A stretch of 64,000 nt of DNA from an uncultured Bacillota bacterium (GTDB lineage Bacteria; Bacillota_I; Bacilli_A; RF39; UBA660). The DNA lies in assembly GCA_900317975.1 (NCBI GenBank), contig ONIZ01000001.1, forward strand, positions 135,479 to 199,478. Reading direction: 5' to 3'. Positions 928-17,282 of the stretch are shown here, in pieces. The position numbers were made by a program, and so were the translations under genes. Each line of letters starts with the position of its first letter. Within the stretch, counting starts at the first letter, position 1. Under the pieces are notes generated by a model. It was not told the DNA's origin, did not search any database, and saw nothing but the letters and a program-made list of their open reading frames with translations.

Positions 928-948
928 TACTTATAAAACATATTTATT

Positions 949-965: not shown

Positions 966-978
966 TTTTTTTAGACGA

Positions 979-1008
979 AAAGAGAGCTATATTTCTATAA
1001 CTCTCTTT
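979..1008 (-). terminator. weak stem-loop downstream of the 1044..2120 gene
   Basis: aaagagag (979..986) pairs with ctctcttt (1001..1008) around a 14-nt loop. A short U run follows on the minus-strand transcript. Confidence 0.3.
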
Positions 1009-1043
1009 ATGTTTTTTCTTAAGTTGTATATTAACTATTTATA

Positions 1044-2120: not shown

Positions 2121-2172
2121 ATTTTTATCTTTTTATTTATATATTTTATATATTTTTGGTTTTATTTTGTTT

Positions 2173-2694
2173 TTAGTTATTTAACTGTAGTATGTTTCTA
2201 GCATATTTACTATGTAATTCATCATTTATCTTAAGTGTATTACCATCATAGTCATAGTGTAGATCATAGATAATCATATCTGTCTTCTTATATGGAACAT
2301 TTATCTTATTGTAGATCTTTTTTATCTTTTCATATAAAGTTGAACTTACAATGGTATCGTTTTCTTCATAAAGTTCCGAATCATCACATGTATTTATCTT
2401 TTCTTTTACTACCTTGTCATTTACAATATTCTTATATACTAAACGGTTTTCTTTATTGAAAAAATGTCCATATACAATCTTATAAGGAATCTTCAATTCA
2501 GTAGTTATAAGTCCAAGAATGTATAATGTTTGATTAATATAATAGTATTTTAGTTTCTTGTATGTACTAGCAATAGCATTATATACAATATTGTTTTCAA
2601 TCTTTCTTATATAGTATCTATTGTTGAACTTATCAAATCCTACTTTATTGAATTTTTCTCCGTATATTCTTGAATAATTATTGCTAACAATCAT
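2173..2694 (-). CDS. hypothetical protein (Y/N/K-rich), first gene of a minus-strand block
   Basis: 173-aa ORF with an ATG start. Motif A lies 23 nt upstream. Confidence 0.5.
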   Translation of the reverse strand: MIVSNNYSRIYGEKFNKVGFDKFNNRYYIRKIENNIVYNAIASTYKKLKYYYINQTLYILGLITTELKIPYKIVYGHFFNKENRLVYKNIVNDKVVKEKINTCDDSELYEENDTIVSSTLYEKIKKIYNKINVPYKKTDMIIYDLHYDYDGNTLKINDELHSKYARNILQLNN

Positions 2695-2717
2695 AATTCA
2701 TTAAAAATGAACTTAAA

Positions 2718-2734
2718 TATATAATTAAAAATAA
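2718..2734 (-). promoter_or_regulatory. motif A, copy 2
   Basis: Exact TATATAATTAAAAATAA, 23 nt upstream of the ATG at 2694. Confidence 0.5.
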
Positions 2735-2764
2735 AACAAATTTAGATTGAATTTTATTTGTCTA

Positions 2765-2787
2765 TTTGACTATTTTATTTTATAAAA
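2765..2787 (+). promoter_or_regulatory. motif B (consensus about TGAACTATATTTATA), copy 1
   Basis: tttgACTATtttattttataaaa, about 40 nt upstream of the ATG at 2808. Confidence 0.45.
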
Positions 2788-2807
2788 AATATTAAATTCA
2801 TTTAAAA

Positions 2808-3836
2808 ATGATTAATAATCAATTATTGTATATTGGACTAAACGGTTTAGCAGGATCAGGGAAAGACACACTTGCAAAAATGCTTAATGTAATACTAATG
2901 AAAGATTGGAAAAACATTGATGAATGTAAAGAATTCTATGATAAATTCTATGTTCGTCCTAATGTTTCTGCAACATATTATGAAAAGACAAAAGAATATG
3001 ACAATAAAGTAATATGTCTGGCTTTTGCTGATCAGTTAAAGACAATATGTTCTGATATCTTCGGTATTCCACTTAAATATTTCTATTTCAACAAATCAAC
3101 CGCATGGGTATGTATCAACCATAATTTTGAATATACGGAAATACGTCCTGATAATGTTGTTACCTGTGAAGACTATTTCTATAATATATCAGAATATAGT
3201 GAATCAGAAACAAAATATTGGATGTCATTACGTGATGTACTTGTCTATATAGGAACATATGTATTGCAATCCGAAGTCAATAAGAATGTATTTGTCAATA
3301 TTGTCTCAAACAAGATAAACAATCTTTTATTGAAGAATCATAGTTTGTCTTATGCTATCATAACAGATGTAAGATTCACTCATGAGATTGAATTCATCAG
3401 AAAGAATAACGGAATAACAATCAAGATAATCAGGGATAGTGTTGTTCCTTTGTCAAATATTGCAGAGCATGATCTTGATGATGAAGACAGATATGATTAT
3501 GTAATCTACAATAATGATACCTATGATGACTTGTTCAATCAGGTATGGGATATTGTCCATAGTAACAAAGAGTTTGAAAATGATGTTGTAGATATGACAA
3601 CCAGAGAAAATATCAACAACTATTTGAGAAAGATTGATGAAGATGAATATCAGGTTTGTTCTCCCTATGGTATACAACAAATTGGTCATGAAAATGGAGA
3701 GATATCAATGATAGACCTAAAGGGCGGTCCAACAATTTATATAGATCAAGAGATACCCGGTACATCTATCATACCATATAGTATTGTTATGGATGAAAAT
3801 ACAAGTAAGTTCATAATAAAAGGGAATAGCGATTAA
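2808..3836 (+). CDS. deoxynucleoside monophosphate kinase (T4 gp1-like) with a C-terminal extension of about 90 aa
   Basis: P-loop GLNGLAGSGKDTLAKML. Later segments (SLRDVLVYIGTYVL, IITDVRFTHEIEFIR, IKIIRD, AEHDLD) run in the same order as T4 gp1 (SGKDT ... RRLMQALGTD ... VPDTRQDHEMD ... HVVRP ... HITE), recalled from memory. Confidence 0.65.
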   Translation: MINNQLLYIGLNGLAGSGKDTLAKMLNVILMKDWKNIDECKEFYDKFYVRPNVSATYYEKTKEYDNKVICLAFADQLKTICSDIFGIPLKYFYFNKSTAWVCINHNFEYTEIRPDNVVTCEDYFYNISEYSESETKYWMSLRDVLVYIGTYVLQSEVNKNVFVNIVSNKINNLLLKNHSLSYAIITDVRFTHEIEFIRKNNGITIKIIRDSVVPLSNIAEHDLDDEDRYDYVIYNNDTYDDLFNQVWDIVHSNKEFENDVVDMTTRENINNYLRKIDEDEYQVCSPYGIQQIGHENGEISMIDLKGGPTIYIDQEIPGTSIIPYSIVMDENTSKFIIKGNSD

Positions 3837-3846
3837 CTATTCCCTT
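3820..3846. terminator. bidirectional stem-loop between convergent genes
   Basis: Perfect 10-bp stem, aagggaatag (3820..3829) with ctattccctt (3837..3846), and a 7-nt loop that contains the stop codon of 2808..3836. Confidence 0.55.
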
Positions 3847-3851
3847 AGTTT

Positions 3852-4430
3852 TTATACTTTATTTTGTGGTAATGGTTTTATGTTAGTAAATGGAAATATT
3901 TCCCAATTTGGATTCTTGCATTTCCATTTTGTTATGTCTCCAATTGTCTTTAGCCGTTCACAACCTTGAAACATACATTTTAGATCTATGTCTTCAGTTA
4001 TATTCCAATTAGATATGTCCCCAATGTCTATAAGACTCCTACAGTTATTGAACATAAATGCCATGCTTTTCACATTAGATATATCCCAATTTTCTAATCC
4101 TATTACTTTTCGAAGATATTTGCAACCACCAAACATTGCAGATAGATTTGTAACATGAGATATATCCCAATCAGATACATCAACTTCAACAATGTTCCAA
4201 GATGAAAATGTATTTGAAAGATTTTTAATATTTGATATATCCACATTATTCATATCAAGAATATTACTTTCTCCAATCTTATCACTTATTATATGTTGTA
4301 GTTCTGAAAAATTCTTTGGAACAAGATTTGATTGAATATTGTCTCTTGATAACCTGAATTTCTCAGTTATATACCCATGCAAACATGGGATCCTTTCAGC
4401 TTCTGAAATATAGTGATTTAGGTTTTTCAT
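3852..4430 (-). CDS. DUF285 / BspA-related 26-residue-repeat protein with a CTS-like N-terminus
   Basis: Repeats: VSDWDISHVTNLSAMFGGCKYL, LENWDISNVKSMAFMFNNCRSL, ISNWNITEDIDLKCMFQGCERL. N-terminus is MKNLNHYISE. Confidence 0.65.
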   Translation of the reverse strand: MKNLNHYISEAERIPCLHGYITEKFRLSRDNIQSNLVPKNFSELQHIISDKIGESNILDMNNVDISNIKNLSNTFSSWNIVEVDVSDWDISHVTNLSAMFGGCKYLRKVIGLENWDISNVKSMAFMFNNCRSLIDIGDISNWNITEDIDLKCMFQGCERLKTIGDITKWKCKNPNWEIFPFTNIKPLPQNKV

Positions 4431-5011
4431 ACGTAATCAAATAGATGCAGTATATGTTTTGAAGATATCATTTTCTTAGTGATCTTTGGATTATTCTTTT
4501 CTGCATATCTCTTTATTGTCTGTCCAAGATTAAGATGTCTTATGTTATGAAAGAATGATTTGTCAACATGCCAATTGAATAGACAACAGTTGTATTCTTT
4601 TATTTCTTTTATGATATTTTCATCAAACCATAATGTAGTCCATGGCTTCTTTATTCCATACCATATCAATGCTGGGTATATATGTTCTAGACCAGTTATT
4701 TCATCAATGAATGATTTCTTAACTTTTTCATTTCCTCTTTCAAGTATTATTCTGAAATAAGCATCAGGATATTTTTCTGAAAAATATTTGCATAAGTTGT
4801 CAATTGACAAGAAAGAGAAGTCTTTTAATGTTGCCTTGTCATGACAGAATGTCCAATGCTTGTTCTTCAATGTTATACGAATATCAAAGAATCTTACATT
4901 TTCTGCGTATTGTTCATCTAATGTCTTCTTTTGGCATCTCCAGACAAATGAAAACAATTCATTGAAGAAATTAGACTTTAGATATGTTAAAGAATCATGT
5001 GTACCTATCAT
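4427..5011 (-). CDS. PI-PLC X-domain-like phosphodiesterase (tentative)
   Basis: MIGTHDSLTY resembles the PI-PLC (I)PGTHDS motif. NVRFFDIRI followed by FCHD resembles GIRxxDIR ... HHG. The protein is short at 194 aa. Confidence 0.4.
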   Translation of the reverse strand: MIGTHDSLTYLKSNFFNELFSFVWRCQKKTLDEQYAENVRFFDIRITLKNKHWTFCHDKATLKDFSFLSIDNLCKYFSEKYPDAYFRIILERGNEKVKKSFIDEITGLEHIYPALIWYGIKKPWTTLWFDENIIKEIKEYNCCLFNWHVDKSFFHNIRHLNLGQTIKRYAEKNNPKITKKMISSKHILHLFDYV

Positions 5012-5030
5012 CTAAATATATAAATATATT

Positions 5031-6674
5031 TTATTTTTGAATTCTAAGTTCAGAATATTCATCTTCAAGTAGATGCTTCTTAGCAGGATTTACAAGATAT
5101 GCTAATTTGCTCATTAAGTCTCTATTCAACAATACCTTTTGTTTCTTCTTTCTATTGTCAACTAAAGCAAACTTAGCATTAAGGAGTTTTCTTGTTCCTA
5201 TTTGGATGCATGGGATCTCTACAACTGTTCTTTCTTCAGTCACTTGTCCAACAATAGCTTTAGATACATCTACTTTCTTGAAGTTATATTCTTTTCCTTC
5301 AATTGTTGCAATGACATCATCACCTTGTATAGATATCTTCTCACAGCCAATTGTTGATGCCTTTGCTCCATTTCCAGTATCAAATTTTGCTTCAAATGTT
5401 ATCTCTTCTTCATTTTCCATTGTGAATGTAATGTCTTCAAGATATCCAACTGATTTTGGTGACAATACTAATTCATTTATGTCATTTATATTGTCTAATA
5501 ATATTTTGCAGAAATTTTCATCAATTACATCACTTATACCTTCCGTACCAGGAGAAGCATTGAATTCAAGAACAACGTTGTCACCAATTTCTGGATTTGA
5601 TCCCTTGACAAGTGGCATGATGTCAACAGCACACCAAGGCATTCCAGATATCTTTGCTACTTTAAGAGCTATCTCTTCTTGTTCTTTAGTCAATTCAACC
5701 TTTTCAGCAACAGCACCTAAAGAGACATTTGAACGGAAGTCACCACCAATCTTCTTACGTTTCATCTGAGCAAGAATCTTCTGTTTTGTTCTCATTGTCA
5801 ATACATGTACTCTTATGTCACCACCATCTGCTTCTTCTTTCTTCTGTACTAATAGTTCTCTTTCTTCATCAATAGCAAATATAGCTTGAAGGATTGAAAG
5901 AATAGTCTTGCCGTTTACCATGAATACACCAGTACCACCATGACCATCCAGGATCTTTACAACATATTCATATTTTTCAGATTCATCAGAATTCTGATCT
6001 TTATATATGTCTTTCAATTTCTTCTTAAGACTATCCATTCCGTCCTTTATGTCATTCTTAGATACTAATGTGAACTTTGGTTGTGGTATCTCATATCTTT
6101 CCATTAATACTGCGGACTGGTATTTGTTGCATGCCTTCTTCAATGACTGAGCAGGATTGATTACAAATATACCCCAGTTCTGGATTTCTTTTATACATTC
6201 CATACATTCTTCAGACTCTTGAGCTCCAAGACGAACAATAGCAATAGTATCAATATTTGACTGATGATCAATAGTATACTTAAGCTTATCATCCCATATA
6301 TCTATCTTGTCATCAGTTGCTTTATAGTTAAGCTGTTCTGCTACAAATATTTCTAGTTTGATGTCTTTTCCCTTTATAGCATCTTCCAAGTTCTTTAATG
6401 TCTTGTTCTTAGATGCATCTCTTTCATTAGTGAAGAACAATATATTTTTAAAGAAATATTCTTTGTTAGCTCCTAATGGGTCCTTTTCTGATGGTTCTAT
6501 ATCTAACTCATTTGTAGCTGATTTGTCTTCTTGTGATTCACCAGGTTCTTCAAGATCTACTGGATCAATAGCAGAATCATCTTTTGGCAATAAGTCATCA
6601 TCTGCTTCTAAGACTCTATTTATGTCATTCAAATTAGTCAGATAAGTATGTAAATGTTCTTTAAACTTTTTCAT
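5031..6674 (-). CDS. RimK-like ATP-grasp ligase fused to a C-terminal retropepsin-like (PF05618, ATP-dependent zinc protease / RimB-like) domain
   Basis: ATP-grasp motifs: GHGGTGVFMV, GGDIRVHVL, GGDFRSNVSLGA, CAVDIMP, LEFNASPG. C-terminal AKFDTGNGAKAS ... ALVDNR ... LLNRDL matches the AKIDTGARTSS ... LTDR ... LLGR pattern. The N-terminal region of about 70 aa is acidic. Confidence 0.7.
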   Translation of the reverse strand: MKKFKEHLHTYLTNLNDINRVLEADDDLLPKDDSAIDPVDLEEPGESQEDKSATNELDIEPSEKDPLGANKEYFFKNILFFTNERDASKNKTLKNLEDAIKGKDIKLEIFVAEQLNYKATDDKIDIWDDKLKYTIDHQSNIDTIAIVRLGAQESEECMECIKEIQNWGIFVINPAQSLKKACNKYQSAVLMERYEIPQPKFTLVSKNDIKDGMDSLKKKLKDIYKDQNSDESEKYEYVVKILDGHGGTGVFMVNGKTILSILQAIFAIDEERELLVQKKEEADGGDIRVHVLTMRTKQKILAQMKRKKIGGDFRSNVSLGAVAEKVELTKEQEEIALKVAKISGMPWCAVDIMPLVKGSNPEIGDNVVLEFNASPGTEGISDVIDENFCKILLDNINDINELVLSPKSVGYLEDITFTMENEEEITFEAKFDTGNGAKASTIGCEKISIQGDDVIATIEGKEYNFKKVDVSKAIVGQVTEERTVVEIPCIQIGTRKLLNAKFALVDNRKKKQKVLLNRDLMSKLAYLVNPAKKHLLEDEYSELRIQK

Positions 6675-6707
6675 GTATATATTATCTCATATATTTTATT
6701 ATGTTTC

Positions 6708-6724
6708 TATATAATTAAAAATAA
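6708..6724 (-). promoter_or_regulatory. motif A, copy 3
   Basis: Exact 17-mer, 33 nt upstream of the ATG at 6674. Confidence 0.5.
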
Positions 6725-6726
6725 AA

Positions 6727-6746
6727 TTTGACTATTTTAATATTAT
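6727..6746 (+). promoter_or_regulatory. motif B, copy 2
   Basis: tttgACTATtttaatattat, immediately after motif A and upstream of 6813. Confidence 0.45.
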
Positions 6747-6812
6747 GATAAGCCACATATAAATATGTTGATGATCATATGAAAAATATAAATATATGTA
6801 AAATATAGTTAA

Positions 6813-7373
6813 ATGAAGTTAATAATTATAGAGGGAACAGACAATGTTGGAAAAGATACACTTATTTCAAGAATTATGGAAAACTACGATGTAATGACAC
6901 TCATTCATTGTGGTAAGCCAAAGTCAAAAGATCATCCAAATGAATCACAGGACAGTTTATTCAATTTCTATATAAAAAGTATAATAAACAAGAAATATAA
7001 TAATTCAGATGTCATTATTATGAACAGATCTCATATAGGTGAAGCAGTCTATGGAGTATTATATAGGAATAGGGACATAAATGAAGTATTGAAGAAGATT
7101 CATGATTGGAATGTTGAGCTTATGAAATGTCCAGACCTTGAAGTAAAGTATATACAATTATTAAGTACATCCGAAAGACTATTGAAGAACAATGAAGATG
7201 GACAGTCATTATCAAAGGGAAATAGTTCTAATATAATAAAAGAAACAGCATTGTTTACAGAAGCATATGTAAAGTCATTTTTAGACAAGAAACTTATATA
7301 TGTAGATGATAATGGAGAATTCAGGACAAAAGAAGATATATTTGATGAAGCATGGGATTTCATTAATAAATAA
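6813..7373 (+). CDS. thymidylate-kinase-like P-loop (d)NMP kinase
   Basis: MKLIIIEGTDNVGKDTL matches the Tmk-type IEGxDxxGK(T/S)T P-loop. Size is 186 aa. Confidence 0.55.
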   Translation: MKLIIIEGTDNVGKDTLISRIMENYDVMTLIHCGKPKSKDHPNESQDSLFNFYIKSIINKKYNNSDVIIMNRSHIGEAVYGVLYRNRDINEVLKKIHDWNVELMKCPDLEVKYIQLLSTSERLLKNNEDGQSLSKGNSSNIIKETALFTEAYVKSFLDKKLIYVDDNGEFRTKEDIFDEAWDFINK

Positions 7374-7397
7374 AAAGATATTAGATAAGAAGATATT

Positions 7398-8102
7398 ATG
7401 ATTAAGACAGAAGATATATTGAAACAGTTCAAAGAAAAGTATGATAATAAAGATTTTAGAATAATTGGCAATAATGTACAGCAAGCAAAGACAATTGAGT
7501 TACAGAATGTACAGTTTGAAGTAGATAAGCCATGGATAGTAAGAGAACCAAACTATGATTATTTCAATAGAGAGCTTGAATGGTATAAGTCAGAATCATT
7601 GAATGTGAATGATATCCCAGAAGGTGCTCCAACAATGTGGAAGTCTTGTGCAACACCAATAGGATATATTAATTCAAATTATGGGTGGATGATCTGGTCT
7701 AAAGACAACTATAATCAATTTGATCATTGTCTACAAAAACTAATTGAGGATCCACATACAAGAGAGGCATGTATGATATATAATAGACCATCAATGCAGG
7801 AAGACTATAATAAATTTGGCATGCATGATTTTTGTTGTACATATTCTGTTCAATGTTTCATAAATGAAGACAAAGAAGGAAAGAAGCATCTAAAATATAT
7901 TGTATATATGAGAAGTAATGATGCAGTATTTGGATTTGATAATGATGCATTATGGCATAAGTATGTTCAGCAAATGCTAAGGAATAGACTTAGTGAACAT
8001 TTTAATGAAGAATTCATAGCAGACAATATTATATGGAATGCAGGATCATTACATATTTATGAAAGACATTTCAAATATTTAGAGGATGGACAAAACGAGT
8101 GA
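7398..8102 (+). CDS. deoxycytidylate 5-hydroxymethyltransferase (T4 gp42-like, thymidylate synthase superfamily)
   Basis: Long colinear matches to T4 gp42 as recalled: RELEWYKSESLNVNDIP, INSNYGWMIWSKDNYNQFDHC, MIYNRPSMQEDYNKFGMHDFCCT, YMRSNDAVFGFDNDALW, IIWNAGSLHIYERHF. The nucleophile Cys and the Asp that replaces the ThyA Asn are both present. Confidence 0.8.
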   Translation: MIKTEDILKQFKEKYDNKDFRIIGNNVQQAKTIELQNVQFEVDKPWIVREPNYDYFNRELEWYKSESLNVNDIPEGAPTMWKSCATPIGYINSNYGWMIWSKDNYNQFDHCLQKLIEDPHTREACMIYNRPSMQEDYNKFGMHDFCCTYSVQCFINEDKEGKKHLKYIVYMRSNDAVFGFDNDALWHKYVQQMLRNRLSEHFNEEFIADNIIWNAGSLHIYERHFKYLEDGQNE

Positions 8103-8676
8103 CATAAAGAGAAAGTTGTTAGATGAGCTTAAAGCTAATAATGTAAAAGATTGCGGATATAATTGCCAAAGTGGAAGAAGATATGTAGAAGTAAAGAATG
8201 CATTGTTTGAAGTTAACAAAGATCGTATTTTTGAAAACATTCCTAAATTGTCTTATATGGATGATTCTTGGTATGTAGCAAATTATGAGCCTTTGCTAGA
8301 AAGGAATGATCAATATAATAAATGCATTAATAAGTTGATTGAGAATCCAGCATCACGTCAAGCAGTTCTCATATTAGTAGATCCTAAAGAATATGACAAT
8401 GAAGACAAAACATTCATATGTACAATGTATATGCATATCTTTCTCAATCATATAGAAGAAAATAAATATGAATTGGAATATATTGTGCATATGAGGTCAA
8501 ATGATGCTATAGAATTCATAACCGATCATCAATGGCACCAGAAAATTTATTTTCGAATTTTTAATGAATTAATTGAGAAAACGAACTATATTATAATAAA
8601 GAAACCTATTGTTTGGAATGCAGATACTATTCATCTATATGAGCAGTTTTGGGATCAAGCAATAGACAATTATTAA
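8086..8676 (+). CDS. divergent second gp42/ThyA-family paralog
   Basis: FICTMYMHIF (Cys), HMRSNDAIEFITDHQWH (RSND plus Asp), IVWNADTIHLYEQFW. It lacks the N-terminal segment of about 40 aa. It overlaps the upstream paralog by 17 nt. Confidence 0.6.
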   Translation: MDKTSDIKRKLLDELKANNVKDCGYNCQSGRRYVEVKNALFEVNKDRIFENIPKLSYMDDSWYVANYEPLLERNDQYNKCINKLIENPASRQAVLILVDPKEYDNEDKTFICTMYMHIFLNHIEENKYELEYIVHMRSNDAIEFITDHQWHQKIYFRIFNELIEKTNYIIIKKPIVWNADTIHLYEQFWDQAIDNY

Positions 8677-8695
8677 CTTATAATATATATAGAGT

Positions 8696-9379
8696 ATGAA
8701 ACATAAGATATCCGCATCAATAATGTGTGTAGACAACCTATTAGATCTACAGTCAGAAATAAAGACATTAGAAGACATAGGTATTGACTATTTGCATTTG
8801 GATGCGATGGATGGGCATTTTGTAAATAATATTACATTTGGCCCAGATATTTTCAATGCTGTTCAAAAATGTTCTTCAATTCCTTGTGACTATCATCTTA
8901 TGCTTGATAATCCATTACCATTCATACAAAGACTTGATCTTAACAATAATGATATTGTGACTATTCATGCTGAGATTGATTCACAAAGATTTGAAGAAGC
9001 ATTTGAATATTTGAAGACATTAAAGAAAAGAGGAGTAAAGATAGGAGTAGCAATCAATCCGGGTACATCAATAGAATCATTGGTGAAATACTTGGATGAT
9101 ATTGATGTGATATTAGTCATGCTTATCAATCCTGGTTTTGCTGGTCAACCTATTATTGATGGAATATTACAAAAGCCTGTATATATCAGGAAATATCTAG
9201 ATTCACTTAATCATAAGAAGATAATGATATCTGTTGATGGTGGTGTATCAGTGGAAAGAGCAAAATATCTTTCAAAGAATGGTATAGACATGTTTGTTGG
9301 TGGTACTTCTGGTCTGTTCATAAAGAATAGTGATTTGAAAAAGAATGCAGAAATATTGAGAAAGAACATAAACAATTAA
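8696..9379 (+). CDS. rpe: ribulose-phosphate 3-epimerase family protein
   Basis: SIMCVD ... HLDAMDGHFVNNITFGP ... YHLML ... INPGFAGQ ... SVDGGV ... VGGTS is colinear with E. coli Rpe. Confidence 0.8.
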   Translation: MKHKISASIMCVDNLLDLQSEIKTLEDIGIDYLHLDAMDGHFVNNITFGPDIFNAVQKCSSIPCDYHLMLDNPLPFIQRLDLNNNDIVTIHAEIDSQRFEEAFEYLKTLKKRGVKIGVAINPGTSIESLVKYLDDIDVILVMLINPGFAGQPIIDGILQKPVYIRKYLDSLNHKKIMISVDGGVSVERAKYLSKNGIDMFVGGTSGLFIKNSDLKKNAEILRKNINN

Positions 9380-9413
9380 GACATAAATAAAACATAATAA
9401 TTAGATAATATAT

Positions 9414-11075
9414 ATGAAAGTTTTTATTACAACATCTGGAATTGGATCAAGACTATTAGAGCTTACAAAATATACTAATAAGTCAATGATCAAAATAGGC
9501 AAGAAACCTGTTATATCTTATATTATTGATGAATATCCTGAAGATACAGAGTTTGTCATTTCTCTTGGATATTTTGGTGATCACATCAAACAATATCTTG
9601 AGTTAGCATATCCTGACAAGAAGATTACATTTGTAAATGTTGATAACTATGCTGGTCCAGGATCATCTCAAGTCTATTCACAATTACAAGCTGAACAATA
9701 TCTTCAAGAGCCATTTATCTATCATGATTGTGATACTATTGTTCAGAACCTTCAAGAGCAGATACCAATGGATTTCAAATATAATTTCTTAGTAGGTTAT
9801 GAGACAAATTCAGAGTTATATGATGCTTTTGATTATGATGTGAATACTAAGACAAATGACAAGTATGACTCATATAAGCTTATAAAGACATATATGAAGC
9901 CTGATTCATTAGTAGGTATGCTTTCATTCATTGGTATTTGTGGTATATATGACTATAAGACATTCTGGAAATATATGCATAAAGCTTATGAGAATGAGAC
10001 AGTTCCCTATGACTTCTTGGTCTATCACAAATATGGAATGTTCAAAAACAGTCTTAGAGCAATAAAAGTTGATAACTGGACAGATACTGGAAATATTGCT
10101 GGTGTAAAGAATGCAAGAAAGATGTTCAAGGATCAGTTCTCAATATTAGACAAGAATGATCAGGCTATCTTCATCATAAAAGACAAGGTAATCAAGTTCT
10201 TTGCTAAAGATGGAGTAGTAGACAATCTCCTTGTTCATTATAATGCTATAAAAGAATTCTGTCAGCCAATAACTCAGAAGACAAAGAACTTTATGTGCTA
10301 TGACTATATTGATGCAGAGAATGCTATAGACAAAATGAATCCTGTAAGATTTGAGTCATTTATGAACACACTTAAGGATTCAGGTTTCTGGGACAACAAG
10401 GAATGGATTGACAAAGAATTGTTCTTTACATGTATGCATAATTTCTATCTTAACAAGAACATACAACGTGTCAATCAGTTCAAGGAATTCTATCAGGTTA
10501 CAGAAGACAAAGACATCTATGTGAATGACATTCTTATTCCAAAAGAATGGACTATTGAAAGGATGCTTAATGAGATGACAAAACTTGATGAATGGAAGAA
10601 TAGTGTACCTTCTGGATGGCATGGTGATTTTGTATTAGACAATATATTATATGATAGTAAGAATGAAAAATATATATTGTTAGACTGGAGACCTAACTTT
10701 GGGGAAATCATAGAATACGGAGATAAAAACTATGACTTTGGAAAGATGAATCATAACATCACATTCAATTTCAATAGTGCTTATAATGATTTGTTCTCCA
10801 TTGATGAATCCGATCCAGATAATATCTATATTAATATATTATGCAACAATTATGTCTATGAATGCAAAGAGGTATTAAGAAAATTTGTAGAAGAAAACTA
10901 TAATGTAAGATTCCCTTATATTGAAATGATTACTGGAGCATGTTGGGTAAGTATGTCACCATTGTATTTCCTCAATCCAGTATCAAAGTTCTTGTTCTAT
11001 ATGGGTAAACTTACTCTTTATGTAAACTTAATGAAATTACTTGGAAATAAGATAACAACAAAATTTGACAAATAA
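9414..11075 (+). CDS. bifunctional sugar-phosphate nucleotidyltransferase (N-terminal) and APH/choline-kinase-fold kinase (C-terminal)
   Basis: N-terminus MKVFITTSGIGSRLLELTKYTNKSMIKIGKKPVISYII matches the GxGxRL ... K signature. C-terminus WHGDFVLDNILYD ... YILLDWRPNFG matches the HGDxxxxN plus D kinase motifs. Confidence 0.65.
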   Translation: MKVFITTSGIGSRLLELTKYTNKSMIKIGKKPVISYIIDEYPEDTEFVISLGYFGDHIKQYLELAYPDKKITFVNVDNYAGPGSSQVYSQLQAEQYLQEPFIYHDCDTIVQNLQEQIPMDFKYNFLVGYETNSELYDAFDYDVNTKTNDKYDSYKLIKTYMKPDSLVGMLSFIGICGIYDYKTFWKYMHKAYENETVPYDFLVYHKYGMFKNSLRAIKVDNWTDTGNIAGVKNARKMFKDQFSILDKNDQAIFIIKDKVIKFFAKDGVVDNLLVHYNAIKEFCQPITQKTKNFMCYDYIDAENAIDKMNPVRFESFMNTLKDSGFWDNKEWIDKELFFTCMHNFYLNKNIQRVNQFKEFYQVTEDKDIYVNDILIPKEWTIERMLNEMTKLDEWKNSVPSGWHGDFVLDNILYDSKNEKYILLDWRPNFGEIIEYGDKNYDFGKMNHNITFNFNSAYNDLFSIDESDPDNIYINILCNNYVYECKEVLRKFVEENYNVRFPYIEMITGACWVSMSPLYFLNPVSKFLFYMGKLTLYVNLMKLLGNKITTKFDK

Positions 11076-11078
11076 GAT

Positions 11079-11993
11079 ATGAAGATAGCCGGAATTACAG
11101 TTGCTTACAATGAAGGTAATATGGTGAAATATGTAATGCCATATTATGAGAAAATGGGTATTGATAAATTGATAGTCTATGACAATATGTCTACTGATGA
11201 CATGTGTGAAAAACTTTCTAAATATCCATTTGTGGAGATTCGTCATTTTGATACTAATGGGAAGTTTGATGACAGAAAGAATTCTGATCTCAAGGAAGAA
11301 GTGTCTTATGAATTACTTCAAGAAGGATATGATTGGGTATATACTGGAGACTTTGATGAAATAGTCTATTGTGAAGGTGATTTCAAGAAGGAACTTGAGA
11401 AAATTGAGGAATTAGGTGGAACAGTACTTTGTAGAGACATGATCCAGCCATTCAATCCATTGCCTTATGACTTTGATGAGACAAAACTTATTCATGAACA
11501 ATGTACTCATTTCCTTACATGGCATGACTGGTCAAGTACATGGGGTGGATCAAAGGTATTGTTGAGAAGTAAGAAAGTACCGAAGATAAAGTTGTCATTA
11601 GGTGCCCATGGAACAGGATTTCCAAAGAAGGGTATTGAGACAGATCCAGTATTGTTTGGCTATCCTTTCATCACATTCCATCTCAAATATGTTGACTTTA
11701 CTGCATTAGAGCATAATTCTCACGAAAAGCATGCAAGAATACAATGGAGATTAGATGTCCCAACATGTACAGCAGTAGATGCATCATTTACAAAACGTCT
11801 TTATTCTCGTACAATGGGTGATGCTGGTATAAAGAATACTATAGATAAATTAATGAAGAAGACAAGTAAACTTAATATTGCTCCTGGTTGGGAATCATTC
11901 AAGGAATACTATGATAAAAACTATAAGATGAATATGACTAAATTTAAAAATATTAAACACGTAAAAAGATTAGATTATGAACAGAACAGCTGA
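11079..11993 (+). CDS. GT-A fold glycosyltransferase (GT2-like)
   Basis: ITVAYNEGNMV ... LIVYDNMSTDD ... GDFDEIV (DxD-like). Confidence 0.5.
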   Translation: MKIAGITVAYNEGNMVKYVMPYYEKMGIDKLIVYDNMSTDDMCEKLSKYPFVEIRHFDTNGKFDDRKNSDLKEEVSYELLQEGYDWVYTGDFDEIVYCEGDFKKELEKIEELGGTVLCRDMIQPFNPLPYDFDETKLIHEQCTHFLTWHDWSSTWGGSKVLLRSKKVPKIKLSLGAHGTGFPKKGIETDPVLFGYPFITFHLKYVDFTALEHNSHEKHARIQWRLDVPTCTAVDASFTKRLYSRTMGDAGIKNTIDKLMKKTSKLNIAPGWESFKEYYDKNYKMNMTKFKNIKHVKRLDYEQNS

Positions 11994-13323
11994 AAAGAAC
12001 ATTTTGATCGGAAAAATTGGAAAATCAATTAAATTCAAGAACTTAGACATTAGAACGGGTGGTGATGCATGCATGATATTCTATTCATCAATTGCAAGAA
12101 TGAATCCTGAATATAACTTCTATTGGATTGGCCCAAACCAGATGAACAAGCTTAGTCAGGAGGAGTATGACTATATATTCCCTAACCATAACGTATTCTC
12201 TGCTTATGGATCAGATTATGACAACCCTAATGCACATCCATTCCAGCCAATATTGGATTATTTCAAAAATAATGACATAAAGATTGACTTCGCTTTGCTT
12301 ATGTCTGGAATGTGCTCAGGTCTCAATGTACCGAATTTCATGAAGAGTAAGAAGACTGGTGAATATGCTAAGATCTTGAATGCATTCAAAAACTATGTTG
12401 GTCCCTATATCTGGACACTTAATGAAACAAATGTGCCTTTCTATCTTATTTCAGAGGATGCAAGATATATTACAACAAATGCTACTGATCTCTGTAACAG
12501 GGAAAGACTTATCTTTACACAAACAAATGGTTATTTCAATCCTATTCCCCATATCACATCATTGACAGACTTCACATTGAAAGAAGATAGCTCAATCAAA
12601 TGTATCTATGGATATGTTGAGAGAATATTTATGATGGGTCTTAGTCATGACTGGAAAGAGAAGATTGATATTGACAGGAAACTTCATTCTACTGGAAACA
12701 GACTTATTGTTATCTCAAATGGATGTGGTCAGAAAGATATCAATAGAGCAAATGGCGGAAAGGGTTCAAGACTTCCTGAATACAAGAAATATATCATTGA
12801 CAATCTTAAGAATACCGAATATTCTGGTACAAAGATCTATGGACAGTGGGATGACAAGACATATGCTAAATATCCTGATACTGTCATTGACAAGCCACTT
12901 GTAGAACTTGAAGATGAAGTAGCAGATGCTCGTTATTCATTAGTATATTCTATCATGCCTGGGTTTGTTACTGTAAAAGCTTGGGAAATGATCATCAAGG
13001 GTCTTATCCCATTTATCCATCCCGATTATGACAAAGACAGACTTCTTGGACTTCCTGAATATTGTTATCTTAAGGATGAGAAAGACTTGTTGATAAAGAT
13101 GAGAGAACTTGATGCTCATGATGAATTATATCTACGCTTATTGAATAATTGCTTTAATTGCATATCAGAAGATGATCTCAATGGTAAGCGAATGAACAAT
13201 TTCATATTCAACAAGATTGCAGAAGATCTGGGATTTGAGTATAAAGAGAAAGAAGGATGTGAATCTATTTTTGATCATTTCTCAAAGACTGTATTTGATC
13301 CTTCAAAAGTTATAAATAAATAG
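11977..13323 (+). CDS. possible DNA beta-glucosyltransferase-like protein (T4 BGT-like, tentative)
   Basis: PFYLISEDARYIT resembles T4 BGT IYYLFTDIRLPF, which holds the catalytic Asp. VTVKAWEMIIKGLIPFIHPDYD resembles ITLRVWETMASDAVMLIDEEFD. Both comparisons are from memory. Overlaps the upstream GT by 17 nt. Confidence 0.4.
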   Translation: MNRTAEKNILIGKIGKSIKFKNLDIRTGGDACMIFYSSIARMNPEYNFYWIGPNQMNKLSQEEYDYIFPNHNVFSAYGSDYDNPNAHPFQPILDYFKNNDIKIDFALLMSGMCSGLNVPNFMKSKKTGEYAKILNAFKNYVGPYIWTLNETNVPFYLISEDARYITTNATDLCNRERLIFTQTNGYFNPIPHITSLTDFTLKEDSSIKCIYGYVERIFMMGLSHDWKEKIDIDRKLHSTGNRLIVISNGCGQKDINRANGGKGSRLPEYKKYIIDNLKNTEYSGTKIYGQWDDKTYAKYPDTVIDKPLVELEDEVADARYSLVYSIMPGFVTVKAWEMIIKGLIPFIHPDYDKDRLLGLPEYCYLKDEKDLLIKMRELDAHDELYLRLLNNCFNCISEDDLNGKRMNNFIFNKIAEDLGFEYKEKEGCESIFDHFSKTVFDPSKVINK

Positions 13324-13332
13324 ACAATATAT

Positions 13333-13824
13333 ATGAACAAGATAATTGTAATTAGCGATATTGATGGTTGCTTGACAGATGGAGGACTTTATTATACTGC
13401 TGATGGCAAAGTAATGAAGAAGTTTGGAGTTGGTGATCATGAAGGAGTAAAGCTTTTACGAAAGAACAATATAGATATCCTGTTTATCACTGCCGATAAG
13501 ACAGGATATCCTATTGTCAAACGTAGAATAGATGATATGAAATGTGATCTTGTTGTTGTAAATGAAATAGAACGATTAGACTTCATTAAAGAATATGTGA
13601 AAGAATATGAACAAGTGGTATTCTTTGGAGATGGTCTTGGGGATGCTAATGTGAAGAGCAAAATCCCAGAAATATATTTCATAACTCCAAGAAACGCCAG
13701 AAATGAAGCTAAATATGTTTCTGACTATATCACCGAAAACAAAGGTAGTGAAGGAGCTTTCTTAGATCTTGCTATACATGTTTCTTGGAAAACAAATACA
13801 TATTATAATAAACTATATGAATAG
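13333..13824 (+). CDS. KdsC-family HAD phosphatase (KDO-8-P / KDN-9-P phosphatase type)
   Basis: VISDIDGCLTDGGLYYTADGKVMKKFGVGDHEGVKLL ... FFGDGLGD is typical of the HAD-IIIA KdsC pattern. Confidence 0.75.
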   Translation: MNKIIVISDIDGCLTDGGLYYTADGKVMKKFGVGDHEGVKLLRKNNIDILFITADKTGYPIVKRRIDDMKCDLVVVNEIERLDFIKEYVKEYEQVVFFGDGLGDANVKSKIPEIYFITPRNARNEAKYVSDYITENKGSEGAFLDLAIHVSWKTNTYYNKLYE

Positions 13825-15109
13825 ACAAATAAGATGGGCAGCAATACAACCGCTTACTGGAGGTATGTATCTTGGGGCTGAAGAAGCTATAGGAAATAAA
13901 GCCGAATGGATCATGTCATTCAAAGGATTAGATACTGTCAAATATTCAAAGACTGATCCAACACAAATGACATCTGTTGGCAATGAATATAACCTATTGA
14001 AATATCTAGAAAAGAAAGGGAGATCTGTACCCTATTATGTCATTAATAGTCCAATGTTTGATATTGACATAAACAGTACAAATGTTGACATTACTTTAGA
14101 TGGTGACAAGGCAACTCCTGATTATAATGATATTGACATAATTGTTGGTGTTCCTGTTTGTTCAGGTCTTTCAATGGTCACAAGTGGTAGTGAAGAGACA
14201 AAGAAGCAGAGAAACTGCAATATGCAATGGATGGCTAATTATACATTACAAGTAATAAGGCCAAAGGTATATATATTTGAGAATGCTCCAACATTGATGA
14301 CAGAACGTGGTGAGTATCTAAGAGAATGGTTTAATGAATTAGCATCTTTGAATGGTTATTCTATTCTCTATTATAAGACAGATACTATTCTTCATAACAA
14401 TCCGCAAAAACGTCCTCGTACATTTGTCATTTTTGTAAAGCATAACAAGTATGAGGCACAACAAGATCCACCATTGTTTGATTGGGAAAAGAAACCTATA
14501 TCATTAGAAGATTTTTTGAACAATATACCAGAAGGACTTGAGCAAGATGTTCCTGTATCAACAAGCCCAAATAACTTCTATTTGAAAGACTTTATGAATG
14601 AAGAATATAATAATGACTGGAAGAAACTTATCAATGGATCCGTCATGAACTTCATCATCAAAGAAAAGAAATTAGACAAGTTGATTAAGCATACTGAAAA
14701 TAATGACAAATATGGAGATGAGAACAAGGAGAAGACATTGAAATATTTCAATCATATTAAGAAGAAGAAAGAAATGGGATTGAATTTCTATGGTAATGAT
14801 CTTGTATATTTCAAAGACAAACTTCCTTCTGTTCAATTTAGAGCAATCCCTAATATGGTACATATAACAAAGGACAGAATATATACTATAAGAGAATATC
14901 TTACATTTATGGGAATGCCTTATGACTTTATCTTATATGGAGACAAGTCTAATCTTCCAAAGATCGCTCAGAATGTTCCAGTAGGTACAGCAAAATTCAT
15001 AGTTGAACAAGCAGTAAAGATCATTGAGAACTGGGGACAAGAAAGAACAACAAATCATAATGCGTTATATCAAAACAATATAGAACAAAAGACAAGAAAC
15101 GGGGATTAA
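13817..15109 (+). CDS. DNA (cytosine-5)-methyltransferase-fold enzyme
   Basis: Motifs in order: PLTGGMYLG (I), GVPVCSGLS (IV), IFENAPTL (VI), QKRPRTFVIF (VIII), REYLTFMGMPYDF (IX), AQNVPVGTAKFI (X). I use the ATG at 13817, which overlaps the upstream stop as ATGAATAG. The track start at 13769 is a TTG. Confidence 0.75.
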   Translation: MNRQIRWAAIQPLTGGMYLGAEEAIGNKAEWIMSFKGLDTVKYSKTDPTQMTSVGNEYNLLKYLEKKGRSVPYYVINSPMFDIDINSTNVDITLDGDKATPDYNDIDIIVGVPVCSGLSMVTSGSEETKKQRNCNMQWMANYTLQVIRPKVYIFENAPTLMTERGEYLREWFNELASLNGYSILYYKTDTILHNNPQKRPRTFVIFVKHNKYEAQQDPPLFDWEKKPISLEDFLNNIPEGLEQDVPVSTSPNNFYLKDFMNEEYNNDWKKLINGSVMNFIIKEKKLDKLIKHTENNDKYGDENKEKTLKYFNHIKKKKEMGLNFYGNDLVYFKDKLPSVQFRAIPNMVHITKDRIYTIREYLTFMGMPYDFILYGDKSNLPKIAQNVPVGTAKFIVEQAVKIIENWGQERTTNHNALYQNNIEQKTRNGD

Positions 15110-15126
15110 TTTCCCTGTTTTTTTTT
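15097..15126 (+). terminator. rho-independent terminator
   Basis: aaacgggga (15097..15105) pairs with tccctgttt (15112..15120), including one G-U pair. The stem runs into a run of about nine T. Confidence 0.6.
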
Positions 15127-16229: not shown

Positions 16230-17282
16230 ATGAAGAAGTTTATTTTAAGTTTGATGCTGATGTTCAGCATGGTAATGGGTGTTTCCGCTCAGACCGCTAT
16301 TGAGACACCCAAGTTTTTTGACAATTGGTATGTTGGTGTAAATGCCGGCGCTACCACTAATTTAGAGTTCAATAAGGTTTTCCCAGTAAATGCAACTGTT
16401 GGTGCAGTACTTGGAAAAGAGTTTACTCCTGTATTTGGTGCACAGATTGAAGGTGTAACATGGCTTGGTGATGCTAATTTTGCTAATTCACATACTGCTT
16501 TCAAAGCAATTGATCTTTGTGTAAATGGAACAGTTAATTTTAGTAACTTGTTCTTTGGATATCTTGGAACACCTCGTAAGTTTGAAGTAAGTGGTGTAGC
16601 TGGTATCGGTTGGCTTCATATCTATGGTGACCACAATCTTGATGGCACTTATGGTCATGAAGACAATGATGAGTTTATAGCAAAGACTGCCGTAAATCTT
16701 GCTTGGAATCTTGGTAAGACAAGATCACATCAGTTATATGTACAGCCAGGTATCTATTGGAACTTGACAAATGGTCCTCGTGATTATGTACATTTCAATA
16801 GTAAGCATGCACAGGTTGGTGTATCTGTTGGTTATGTCTACAAATTCAAGACAAGCAATGGAACACATAATTTCAAGACTTATGATGTAGGCATGATGCA
16901 GGATGAAATTTCAAGATTGAATGATGCTCTTGCAGCTTGTGAGAATCGTCCTCCACGCGAAGTTACAAAGGAAGTTGCCGTAAGGGTTCCTGTACCTGCA
17001 TTTGAGGTAATTGAGTTTGAGCTTGGTTCTTATGAATTGTTAGATGAGGCAAAGGCTAAGCTTGATAAGATTGATGAGCGAATGACTGTAGAAATTACAG
17101 CTACAGCTTCTCCTGATGGAAAAGAACAATTTAATAAAGAGTTGTCAGACAAACGTGCTCAGGCAGTAGCAGACTATCTTAAGGGTAGAGGAGTTACTGT
17201 AAAGAGTGCCGAAGGTCAGGGAGTCAAGTTGAACAGATTAGCTATAGTTACATTTGTTCGTCCTGAAAGACCACGTAGATAA
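16230..17282 (+). CDS. OmpA-family outer membrane protein (signal peptide, beta-barrel and OmpA C-terminal domain)
   Basis: Signal peptide MKKFILSLMLMFSMVMGVSAQ. The N-terminal half is rich in G, Y, W and N, as in beta-barrels. C-terminal TATASPDGKEQFNKELSDKRAQAVADYLKGRGV matches the NxxLSxxRAxxV motif. The gene is visibly richer in G+C than its neighbours. Confidence 0.8.
   Translation: MKKFILSLMLMFSMVMGVSAQTAIETPKFFDNWYVGVNAGATTNLEFNKVFPVNATVGAVLGKEFTPVFGAQIEGVTWLGDANFANSHTAFKAIDLCVNGTVNFSNLFFGYLGTPRKFEVSGVAGIGWLHIYGDHNLDGTYGHEDNDEFIAKTAVNLAWNLGKTRSHQLYVQPGIYWNLTNGPRDYVHFNSKHAQVGVSVGYVYKFKTSNGTHNFKTYDVGMMQDEISRLNDALAACENRPPREVTKEVAVRVPVPAFEVIEFELGSYELLDEAKAKLDKIDERMTVEITATASPDGKEQFNKELSDKRAQAVADYLKGRGVTVKSAEGQGVKLNRLAIVTFVRPERPRR

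Follow-up and report, generated by a model that had tools for sequence, protein, structure and literature searches.

Introduction

Hypermodification of phage DNA decides which restriction, CRISPR, and type IV systems stop a phage, and it also blocks genome sequencing and engineering. In phage T4, deoxycytidine monophosphate (dCMP) hydroxymethylase (gp42), a gp1-type deoxynucleoside monophosphate (dNMP) kinase, and the GT-B enzyme DNA beta-glucosyltransferase (BGT) underlie the glucosylation of 5-hydroxymethylcytosine (5hmC); the donor is host uridine diphosphate (UDP)-glucose, and the phage carries no sugar-activation genes. The Afh system arabinosylates the 5-hydroxycytosine (5hoC) of phages RB69 and DLP3 (PMC13326640, which names He et al., 2026 and Mahler et al., 2025 as sources). 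By that paper's account of He et al. (2026), an arabinose-5-phosphate isomerase of HY126 supplies arabinose-5-phosphate, AfhE (N-terminal pyrophosphorylase, C-terminal kinase) converts it to arabinose-1,5-bisphosphate, AfhF, an HAD phosphatase, strips off the 5-phosphate, and AfhE turns the remaining sugar phosphate into UDP-arabinofuranose for DNA-acting GT-B transferases. This route was solved only in 2025-2026, and only in enterobacterial and Acinetobacter phages that place arabinose on 5hoC. Here we examine a stretch of 64,000 nucleotides from contig ONIZ01000001.1 (assembly GCA_900317975.1, positions 135,479 to 199,478, forward strand; hereafter the window), in which a phage operon very probably represents cytosine glycosylation of the Afh/T4 type in a new combination, namely T4-type 5hmC synthesis together with an Afh-type self-made donor, an AlsE-like epimerase, a KdsC-type phosphatase, and a BGT-like transferase. 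We hold with considerable confidence that the operon serves the glycosylation of 5hmC in DNA with a phage-activated sugar, one that has probably not been described on DNA before.

A Nine-Gene Operon Compared with Described Systems

The window has a phage signature (tail-fibre families, a phage lysozyme, and a T4 gp1-type dNMP kinase) and a guanine-cytosine (GC) content of about 30%. An original prediction, made from the sequence alone, had drawn attention to five adjoining plus-strand genes at 8696-13824 as a phage route to a nucleotide-activated sugar via a salvage-type kinase and pyrophosphorylase, tied to a gp42 homolog. This core reading is upheld, as are the five open reading frames (ORFs; 227, 553, 304, 448, and 163 aa, spaced by +34, +3, -17 [an overlap], and +9 nt) and all five family calls, for which Pfam, NCBIfam, PDB, and structure-model evidence was used. 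The five genes do adjoin one another, but they form only the middle part of a larger, close-packed unit that adds a hydroxymethylase, a nucleotide kinase, and a C5-methylase-like gene. This operon starts divergently from a RimK-like gene on the minus strand, has a thymidylate-kinase-like gene and a T4 dCMP hydroxymethylase ortholog at its head, and ends with the C5-cytosine-methylase-like gene and a terminator-like hairpin; the latter comes from a consensus scan only, which returned 3 sites in the region against 2.4 expected. The features are as follows.

6813-15109, plus strand: nine-gene operon
6813-7373, plus strand: thymidylate-kinase-like nucleotide kinase, first operon gene and counterpart of RB69 gp45 (phrog_761, E 1.3e-13)
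7398-8102, plus strand: dCMP hydroxymethylase, T4 gp42 ortholog (PDB 1b49, E 4.1e-61, 210 bits)
8086-8676, plus strand: short hydroxymethylase paralog of 196 aa, overlapping the end of the preceding gene (Pfam Thymidylat_synt, E 4.5e-6)
8696-9379, plus strand: ketose-phosphate 3-epimerase of the Rpe/AlsE family
9414-11075, plus strand: bifunctional AfhE-type protein, sugar-1-phosphate nucleotidyltransferase (residues ~1-240) and sugar-phosphate kinase of APH/choline-kinase fold (~250-553), by profiles, model, and hhalign
11079-11993, plus strand: accessory GT2-type (GT-A) glycosyltransferase (Pfam Glyco_tranf_2_4, PF13704, E 1.1e-12, 48.7 bits against a cut-off of 27.5)
11977-13323, plus strand: GT-B glycosyltransferase resembling T4 BGT, the candidate hmC-DNA glycosyltransferase (AF2 model, pLDDT 91.5)
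13333-13824, plus strand: capless HAD-IIIA phosphatase of KdsC/KDN-9-P type, 163 aa (NCBIfam, PDB)
13817-15109, plus strand: C5-cytosine DNA methyltransferase-like protein, last operon gene (Pfam DNA_methylase, E 6.4e-21, 75.6 bits against a cut-off of 22)
15101-15125, plus strand: terminator-like hairpin and T-run on the stop codon of the last operon gene
2808-3836, plus strand, outside the operon: T4 gp1-type dNMP kinase (phrog_139, E 1.3e-35; Pfam DNMK, E 4.2e-11)

Many metagenomic phage contigs carry this gene set again, with protein identities of 28-99%, and the arrangement is therefore not due to chance. (Related loci carry L-number labels below, L002 being Enterococcus phage 9183 and L005 Pseudoalteromonas phage XG4.) The order kinase, hydroxymethylase, epimerase, fusion, BGT-like glycosyltransferase, KdsC-type HAD, and methylase-like gene is found in the window, L003, L012/14, and L013/15.

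With the Afh systems of RB69, HY126, and DLP3, the window has in common a ThyA-family enzyme, a thymidylate-kinase-like kinase, a nucleotidyltransferase-kinase fusion that would work with an HAD phosphatase via a bisphosphate, and a GT-B enzyme predicted to act on DNA. It departs from them in its base (5hmC with Asp169, as against 5hoC with Asn169), in its feeder enzyme (an Rpe/AlsE-family epimerase rather than an arabinose-5-phosphate isomerase), in its phosphatase (KdsC-type rather than 1xpj/AfhF-type), in its transferase (closest to T4 BGT rather than MshA/BshA-like), and in having an extra C5-methylase-like gene. T4 hmC glucosylation likewise offers counterparts of the gp42, gp1-type kinase, and BGT-like GT-B proteins, and glycosylation after replication, as in T4, would apply to the window; unlike T4, the phage has its own epimerase, kinase-nucleotidyltransferase, and phosphatase, which implies that the donor is not supplied by the host. 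The nucleotide-heptose pathway (GmhA, HldE/HddA, GmhB, and HldC/HddC) shares the logic of a terminal phosphate, an anomeric kinase, a bisphosphate, an HAD phosphatase, and a nucleotidyltransferase, with an HddC-like structure among the matches of the nucleotidyltransferase half and with GmhB and KdsC both belonging to HAD-IIIA. The heptose kinases, however, have a ribokinase or GHMP fold whereas that of the window is of APH/choline-kinase type, and the window has no GmhA; the likeness is one of mechanism, not of family.

Predicted Synthesis of the Modified Base

The protein at 7398-8102 has Glu58, Cys146, Asp169, and Asp177 in E. coli ThyA numbering, the same residues as T4 gp42 in the alignment, and thus carries the residues that mark T4 gp42 membership (Cys148, Asp179, and Glu60, together with Asp at ThyA position 169); the ThyA sequence served for numbering only. 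RB69 gp48, the 5hoC synthase, shows Asn169 in the same alignment, validating the register, and Asn169 is the published signature of 5-hydroxy-dCMP synthases (PMC13326640). As position 169 is Asp and not Asn, the window phage is predicted to build 5hmC rather than 5hoC. An identity as a 5hoC synthase of the RB69 (D169N) type was also considered for this protein and is ruled out by the same residue.

Two phage kinases accompany this enzyme. The thymidylate-kinase-like protein matches RB69p045 by BLASTP (E 9e-5), and its gene heads the cluster also in L003, L010, L012, L013, L016, and L093, while the gp1-type kinase at 2808-3836 supports a T4-like hmC nucleotide metabolism. The short paralog at 8086-8676 is missing the N-terminal segment and Trp80, has Asp in place of Glu58, and retains Cys146 and Asp177. 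L012 and L010 have this paralog, L003 and L013 do not, and it may act as a subunit (regulatory or partner) or as an enzyme with altered specificity.

The Kinase-Nucleotidyltransferase Fusion

A family profile built from 21 relatives matches, over its first ~235 positions, sugar-1-phosphate nucleotidyltransferases in the PDB, among them 5z09 (8.5e-17), RmlA (3hl3), LicC (1jyk), MurU (4y7t), and HddC-like 5xhw. In the kinase half, K261 (the ATP lysine), the catalytic loop H403-G-D405-x4-N410, and the metal-binding D424 are invariant across the same relatives, and this half models as a choline-kinase/APH fold at pLDDT 92. The family profile matches PDB entries in the nucleotidyltransferase half only, and a fold search of the kinase half, in which choline/ethanolamine kinases and APH enzymes come out on top at 10-13% identity and a TM of ~0.5, does not separate the NahK, AmgK, LicA, and MTR-kinase clades. 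The informative test for its placement is the profile-profile comparison with RB69 gp52, which hhalign scores at 97.2% (E 3.9e-11); the nucleotidyltransferase half pairs with RB69 gp53 (94.9%, E 4.6e-8), and the nucleotidyltransferase-kinase order is that of RB69 gp53:52. The fusion also aligns over its full length to ORF47 of Enterococcus phage 9183. Judged on these profiles, it is a distant homolog, in both halves, of the AfhE-type enzyme of RB69/HY126 and not an independent invention.

The fusion had originally been described as a salvage-type kinase and pyrophosphorylase with the layout of AmgK-MurU or LicA-LicC in reverse. The first part of this description is confirmed; the second gives way, since hhalign makes the protein an AfhE-type homolog rather than a one-off reversal. 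AmgK-MurU and LicA-LicC do resemble it in pairing an APH-fold kinase with a small nucleotidyltransferase to give an NDP (nucleoside diphosphate) or CDP (cytidine diphosphate) derivative, and MurU and LicC are among the matches just listed, but the window differs from them in its fused nucleotidyltransferase-kinase order, in a dedicated phosphatase that implies a bisphosphate, and in having AfhE, not AmgK or LicA, as nearest relative.

A CDP-choline product had been named as the outcome that would speak against sugar activation. The kinase half, however, matches choline and ethanolamine kinases at the level of fold only, its setting beside a gp42 ortholog and a BGT-like transferase argues against CDP-choline, and the top AFDB match of the RB69 AfhE homolog is a choline kinase too (PMC13326640). 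By Pfam and NCBIfam annotation, no LicB- or LicD-type neighbours of the fusion were found, its neighbours being the hydroxymethylase, epimerase, phosphatase, and glycosyltransferases. The Arg of a D-x-R motif is present family-wide and is followed by a conserved Lys, both also seen in RB69 gp52; choline kinases and APH enzymes have Glu there. Such basic residues would suit an anionic sugar-phosphate substrate.

Glycosyltransferases, Phosphatase, and a Methylase-Like Protein

The 448-aa protein has no family match by sequence. In a Foldseek search of the PDB with its model, the top five matches are all T4 BGT (1bgt, 1c3j, 1qkj, 1nzd, and 1j39; E 2.6e-7 to 5e-6), at 12-15% identity and a TM of 0.51-0.66 on the target, the protein being ~100 aa longer than BGT; its second-best viral match in BFVD is a protein annotated "DNA beta-glucosyltransferase" (E 5.9e-26, TM 0.74). 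The BGT-like segments that had been noted in the sequence thus agree with the GT-B model, for which T4 BGT is the closest solved structure. In both Enterococcus phage 9183 (E 1.9e-26) and Pseudoalteromonas phage XG4 (E 4e-31), a homolog of this protein comes after the fusion. The accessory GT-A protein (304 aa, GT2-type domain N-terminal) has no PDB sequence relative, and its gene is found only in the window and L012, being absent in L003, L013, and L095.

The phosphatase, with motifs DIDGCLTDG and GDGLGD, scores best on the NCBIfam models for KDN-9-P phosphatase (82 bits, cut-off 180) and the KdsC subfamily (75.5 bits, cut-off 106.95), in both cases under the cut-off, and its best PDB matches are Aquifex KdsC-like 2p9j (1.1e-18) and BT1713 (3e81). 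We propose that it removes the terminal phosphate from a sugar bisphosphate. It shows no detectable similarity to RB69 gp51 (AfhF) and belongs to a separate HAD subfamily, and a KdsC-type HAD adjoins the fusion in L003, L006, L008, L012, L013, L016, L021, L095, L104/5, and L109.

The methylase-like ORF opens at a TTG (13769), and its homologs align from the ATG at 13817. It keeps motifs IV (PVCSGLS, with the catalytic Cys), VI (ENAP), and VIII (QKRPRTF), and motif X reads QNVPV; motif I is unusual, PL(T/I)GG (PLTGG in the window), and the acidic residue of motif II is not evident (M.HhaI being the reference for this comparison). It is also the last gene of the cluster in L003, L012, L013, L093 (twice), L095, L104/5, and XG4. 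A C5-methylase homolog is thus always kept beside the glycosylation genes, even though 5hmC would be made at the nucleotide level.

Proposed Pathway and Identity of the Sugar

The explanation toward which we lean overall is a cytosine hypermodification operon at 6813-15109 working by the following route. In its opening steps, for which homology is strong, the gp42 ortholog would produce 5-hydroxymethyl-dCMP and the two phage kinases would carry this toward the triphosphate, from which DNA would be built with 5hmC. The sugar donor, by analogy with the Afh pathway of RB69/HY126, would be made by the phage itself. The epimerase would convert a central ketose phosphate to its 3-epimer, most likely fructose-6-phosphate to allulose (psicose)-6-phosphate, and the epimer would be used directly or would first pass through an aldose-ketose isomerase (a PHI-like SIS protein in relatives, host-borrowed here). 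The C-terminal kinase would then phosphorylate the anomeric hydroxyl to give a sugar bisphosphate, the KdsC-type HAD would take off the terminal phosphate, and the N-terminal nucleotidyltransferase would yield an NDP-sugar; this succession of kinase, phosphatase, and pyrophosphorylase would, by homology, be the best-supported mechanism. Finally, the BGT-like GT-B protein would move the sugar onto 5hmC in DNA after replication, and the accessory GT-A protein would probably attach a second residue. The expected outcome is DNA resistant to restriction and CRISPR nucleases.

Whether the sugar stems from a hexulose-6-phosphate (psicose directly, or allose or altrose after isomerisation) rather than a pentulose-5-phosphate turns chiefly on the epimerase, and here our judgement is close to even with a slight inclination to the hexulose. 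The family is clear (Pfam Ribul_P_3_epim, E 8.4e-50), and the catalytic motifs of Rpe are in place as had been stated, with H34, D36, H67, and D181 (metal/catalytic) invariant in phage homologs. The highest PDB score goes to E. coli AlsE of the D-allose pathway (3ct7, 130 bits), with S. pyogenes Rpe (2fli, 126.6 bits) nearly level. In place of the short canonical Rpe loop ([AS]GSxx[FM]) and the GFGGQ after beta6, the epimerase has an elongated beta8 phosphate loop, GGTSGLF, and GFAGQ. Its GTSGLF equals AlsE residues 195-200 in length and sequence; the canonical Rpe loop is shorter by one residue, and 2fli aligns there only with a gap. The long AlsE-type loop and GFAGQ occur in 118 of 118 full-length top homologs and in every full-length fusion-linked epimerase, while in the stand-alone viral Rpe genes of L102, L103, and L106 the loop is short and canonical, and no fusion lies near them. 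In 2008, Chan et al. reportedly found that a one-residue deletion in the beta8 loop of AlsE shifts preference to ribulose-5-phosphate (Ru5P), the loop thus setting the preference for hexulose-6-phosphate.

The isomerases of relatives point the same way. A four-gene cassette of KdsC-type HAD, SIS protein, epimerase, and fusion is found on three unrelated viral contigs (L021 7041-9907, L105 6968-10276, and L109 5442-9264), only one of which, L105, has a hydroxymethylase. On NCBIfam models, the SIS proteins of L021 and L105 reach 117-144 bits for 6-phospho-3-hexuloisomerase (PHI) against 19-31 bits for KpsF/KdsD, and that of L109 is their homolog (E 1e-28 to 1e-30); L021 counts as weak support, its epimerase being a 155-aa form with an internal deletion. 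The hexulose reading is thus preferred because of the AlsE-type loop and GFAGQ in fusion-linked epimerases, the standing of AlsE as best solved match, and the PHI-like SIS proteins of relatives. The E. coli D-allose system is matched in part only, since relatives do pair an epimerase with an isomerase, but the context here is biosynthetic rather than catabolic and their isomerase is a PHI-like SIS protein, not RpiB as in the AlsE and RpiB/AlsI pair.

No isomerase, aldolase, or synthase is present in the operon, as had been noted originally for the five genes, or elsewhere within the 64-kb window; searches of the window with the RB69 arabinose-5-phosphate isomerase, the PHI-like SIS proteins of L021 and L105, and the PMI cupin gave nothing at E<1, in a genome that may exceed 400 kb. 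Within 8-10 kb, the gut jumbo-phage lineage likewise has the epimerase but no isomerase. Elsewhere, the enzymes that turn a ketose phosphate into the aldose phosphate for the anomeric kinase are an arabinose-5-phosphate isomerase (RB69), a PMI cupin (a marine cassette), a PHI-like SIS protein (L021, L105, and L109), and GmhA (the heptose pathway). For the window, the possibilities are a host enzyme, a gene elsewhere in the >400-kb genome, or a kinase acting on the ketofuranose itself to give an NDP-ketose donor. RpiB/AlsI-type enzymes interconvert allulose-6-phosphate and allose-6-phosphate. KdsC-type phosphatases normally act on the terminal phosphates of 2-ulosonic acids (2-ketoses), and the phosphatase here would be compatible with a ketose substrate. 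The original alternatives, a pathway that is incomplete and host-dependent or one that uses an unusual sugar, both stand, sharpened by the finding that the isomerase of relatives is of the 6-phospho-3-hexuloisomerase and not the arabinose-5-phosphate type.

A number of points weigh against a hexulose-derived sugar. The epimerase scores alike on the rpe and AlsE models and falls under both equivalog cut-offs (TIGR01163 for rpe, 183.8 against 212.6 bits; AlsE, 181.2 against 271 bits). The substitutions that mark the AlsE clade are S52, Y134, T142, and D147 (PMC12216980); only one of these four, Y134, is found in the window, where the positions of S52, T142, and D147 are G, L, and N and three of the four clade-separating positions hold the ancestral Rpe state. 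The step from a long loop to a hexulose preference rests on the result reported for AlsE by Chan et al., and a long-loop homolog in L097 could as plausibly have a pentulose role, TarI/TarJ-like contexts usually involving pentulose phosphates. Two loci with an orthologous fusion, HAD, and glycosyltransferase (L006 and L016) have no epimerase nearby, and the epimerase is therefore not universally required; the IMG/VR epimerase scan, which was pattern-limited, has no match elsewhere on the 236-kb L016 contig. The fold search of the kinase, a comparison of models, cannot tell a sugar kinase from a choline kinase. The lack of an isomerase calls for either a host enzyme or an NDP-ketofuranose donor, and for the latter we know of no established precedent. 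Lastly, for this phage and its close relatives, the hexulose-sugar pathway is a proposal drawn from sequence, structural models, and analogy.

The L097 locus itself (5242-9047, a Prevotellaceae metagenome-assembled genome) has its long-loop Rpe homolog between an IspD/TarI-like cytidylyltransferase, a TarJ-like Zn-alcohol dehydrogenase, and a glycerol/ribitol-phosphotransferase, and looks like a cluster for an alditol-phosphate polymer (ribitol- or arabinitol-phosphate-like) with its own ketose-phosphate epimerase.

Alternative Sources and Uses of the Sugar

The alternative that survives best, though we consider it unlikely, is a pentose from xylulose-5-phosphate (Xu5P), with the epimerase a true Ru5P/Xu5P enzyme and Xu5P either used as xylulose or turned into xylose-5-phosphate or lyxose-5-phosphate and thence, by kinase, phosphatase, and nucleotidyltransferase, into an NDP-pentofuranose. 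The epimerase does pass the NCBIfam rpe subfamily model (NF004076, 191.6 bits against a cut-off of 165), it has the ancestral state at three of the four AlsE-separating positions, and the L097 homolog has TarI/TarJ-like neighbours; the characterised relatives of the fusion, moreover, use a pentose-5-phosphate, and pentose adducts of cytosine are known in RB69, DLP3, and Thanatos. Set against these are the AlsE-type beta8 loop and GFAGQ of every fusion-linked epimerase, the membership of the relatives' isomerase in the hexulose-6-phosphate isomerase family, and a chemical argument, namely that a 5-phosphorylated pentulose cannot cyclise and so, without an isomerase, would offer the kinase no anomeric hydroxyl.

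Arabinosylation as in RB69, in which the epimerase would merely top up Ru5P from Xu5P, host KdsD would make arabinose-5-phosphate, and the fusion and phosphatase would yield UDP-arabinofuranose, is less probable still. It would account for the homology of the fusion to the AfhE type and for the dispensability of the epimerase in L006 and L016, and a Bacteroides arabinose-5-phosphate isomerase exists (3etn, as cited in PMC13326640). Arabinose is disfavoured, however, because no arabinose-5-phosphate isomerase occurs in the examined clusters that pair the fusion with the epimerase or with a KdsC-type phosphatase (this partner of AfhE being found neither in the window nor in relatives), because the phosphatase is of another HAD subfamily than AfhF/RB69 gp51, and because the base is 5hmC, not 5hoC. 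The SIS genes, where present, are PHI-like (19 bits on the KdsD model), the loop of the epimerase is long and non-canonical, and the linkage of epimerase and fusion persists down to 28% identity, which would be unexpected for a mere flux booster.

Least probable is a decoration of the host or virion surface (LicA-LicC-like CDP-choline or capsule-type glycans) with the nucleotide genes merely adjacent, a use that would fit the choline/ethanolamine kinases at the top of the structural matches, LicC among those of the nucleotidyltransferase, and the 74 of 79 IMG/VR fusion loci that lie in sugar islands without a ThyA homolog (L001 being of polysaccharide type), but that is at odds with the constant flanking of the fusion by a gp42 ortholog and a BGT-like transferase in the window lineage, with the same pairing in 9183 and XG4, with an epimerase and a sugar-phosphate phosphatase that have no place in CDP-choline synthesis, and with a kinase match that is fold-level only, as reported for the RB69 AfhE homolog.

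If the hexulose reading is followed to its end, the picture, which we offer tentatively, is of abundant jumbo phages of the human gut, on contigs of up to ~410 kb, whose 5hmC replaces cytosine and bears a rare hexose new to DNA (D-psicofuranose, D-allose, or D-altrose), made from fructose-6-phosphate by an AlsE-like and AfhE-like route, possibly through an NDP-ketofuranose donor, and in which the methylase-like protein has a non-methylating role.

Recurrence and Variation among Relatives

The fusion family comprises 273 protein-search matches, and 182 viral loci came from the IMG/VR scan. Among the clusters related to that of the window, L095/96 runs hydroxymethylase, fusion, epimerase, glycosyltransferase, HAD, and methylase-like gene, whereas L008/9 has fusion, epimerase, glycosyltransferase, and HAD, with no hydroxymethylase or methylase-like gene within the stretch read. 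The deep-branching, T4-like L104/105 has a hydroxymethylase and, further on, KdsC-type HAD, SIS protein, epimerase (28% identical to that of the window), fusion, glycosyltransferase, and methylase-like gene. Phages 9183 and XG4 have a ThyA homolog, a small HAD, the fusion, and a 448-aa homolog, to which XG4 adds a methylase-like gene. A comparison with other phages, of the kind that the original prediction had suggested for carriers of gp42 homologs, thus shows the pairing of fusion and BGT-like transferase to recur even in these unrelated phages; being recurrent together with the hydroxymethylase, the pairing is ancient and repeated, which supports DNA modification over surface decoration. 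In the public records, the 9183 cluster (28004-32956) bears generic names (thymidylate synthase, HAD hydrolase, NDP-sugar pyrophosphorylase-like, hypothetical), and the XG4 record (cluster at 100-6580) is without annotation.

A different cassette occupies 74 of the 79 IMG/VR loci (L017-L092), with a small AfhF-like HAD, a PMI-type cupin, the fusion, and a 314-aa protein, and no ThyA homolog. It is also found in L001 (8308-11480, in a large polysaccharide-type island) and is environmental, often lying inside large sugar islands. The 314-aa partner, an uncharacterised protein, has no Pfam or PDB match; it may bear some likeness to GatZ/KbaZ.

In L016 (2915-8004), L010 (5565-11234), and L093 (6102-8979), a second sugar-activation set, separate from the fusion, has been swapped in or added. 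It consists of a stand-alone nucleotidyltransferase of ~250 aa together with an HAD_2 enzyme, an APH-like kinase, and an uncharacterised protein of 226-242 aa; two L093 genes, of 226 and 291 aa, are without annotation. L016 has in addition a gene resembling TET-associated glycosyltransferases (TAGT-like) and L010 a GalE-like SDR, and both have two tandem BGT-like copies. The second set and the tandem BGT-like genes suggest di- or trisaccharides or mixed glycans, and the front-end swaps among relatives point to a sugar identity that changes quickly within a single phage group.

The fusion may accordingly be viewed as a general viral device with interchangeable feeders (an arabinose-5-phosphate isomerase, a PMI-type cupin, or Rpe with a PHI-like isomerase), and the window would represent the same Afh engine with another base, feeder enzyme, and phosphatase in very large gut phages. 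The operon yields a testable prediction of a new DNA sugar, its five or six enzymes could be reconstituted in vitro, and the two cultured phages with homologous clusters, 9183 and XG4, provide tractable systems for the chemistry.

Phage Lineage and Neighbouring Genes

The cluster has no nucleotide-level relatives among GenBank phages, nor does a 24-kb structural region. A 410-kb contig on record encodes an identical epimerase, close homologs come from gut-metagenome contigs of 390-412 kb, and the proteins of the operon lineage recur in hundreds of metagenomic sequences, with cluster sizes up to 239-342 members. The features of the lineage fit the "Jug" jumbo gut phages of Bacteroides/Phocaeicola, which have genomes of 360-402 kb, ~30% GC, and the standard code; the paper describing them says nothing about DNA modification or about a hydroxymethylase, an epimerase, or a glycosyltransferase (PMC12880540).

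Just upstream of the operon, on the minus strand (5031-6674), lies the gene for a RimK-type ATP-grasp ligase of 547 aa, which is acidic in its N-terminal region and extended by ~150 aa at the C-terminus. Its synteny is kept in L003, L010, L012, L013, L016, and L093, and it directly adjoins the operon in the window, L003, L013, and L016. The putative ligase could add an amino acid to a nucleotide, sugar, or protein. Three giant ORFs are also on the minus strand, at 38629-47226 (2865 aa), 49258-57555 (2765 aa), and 59234-63940 (1568 aa), with no PHROG matches apart from a weak C-terminal match in the first. The window further encodes a DUF285 (Mycoplasma-type repeat) protein (3852-4430, minus strand) and an OmpA-family protein (16230-17282, plus strand) that has a signal peptide and is beta-barrel-like in its N-terminal part.

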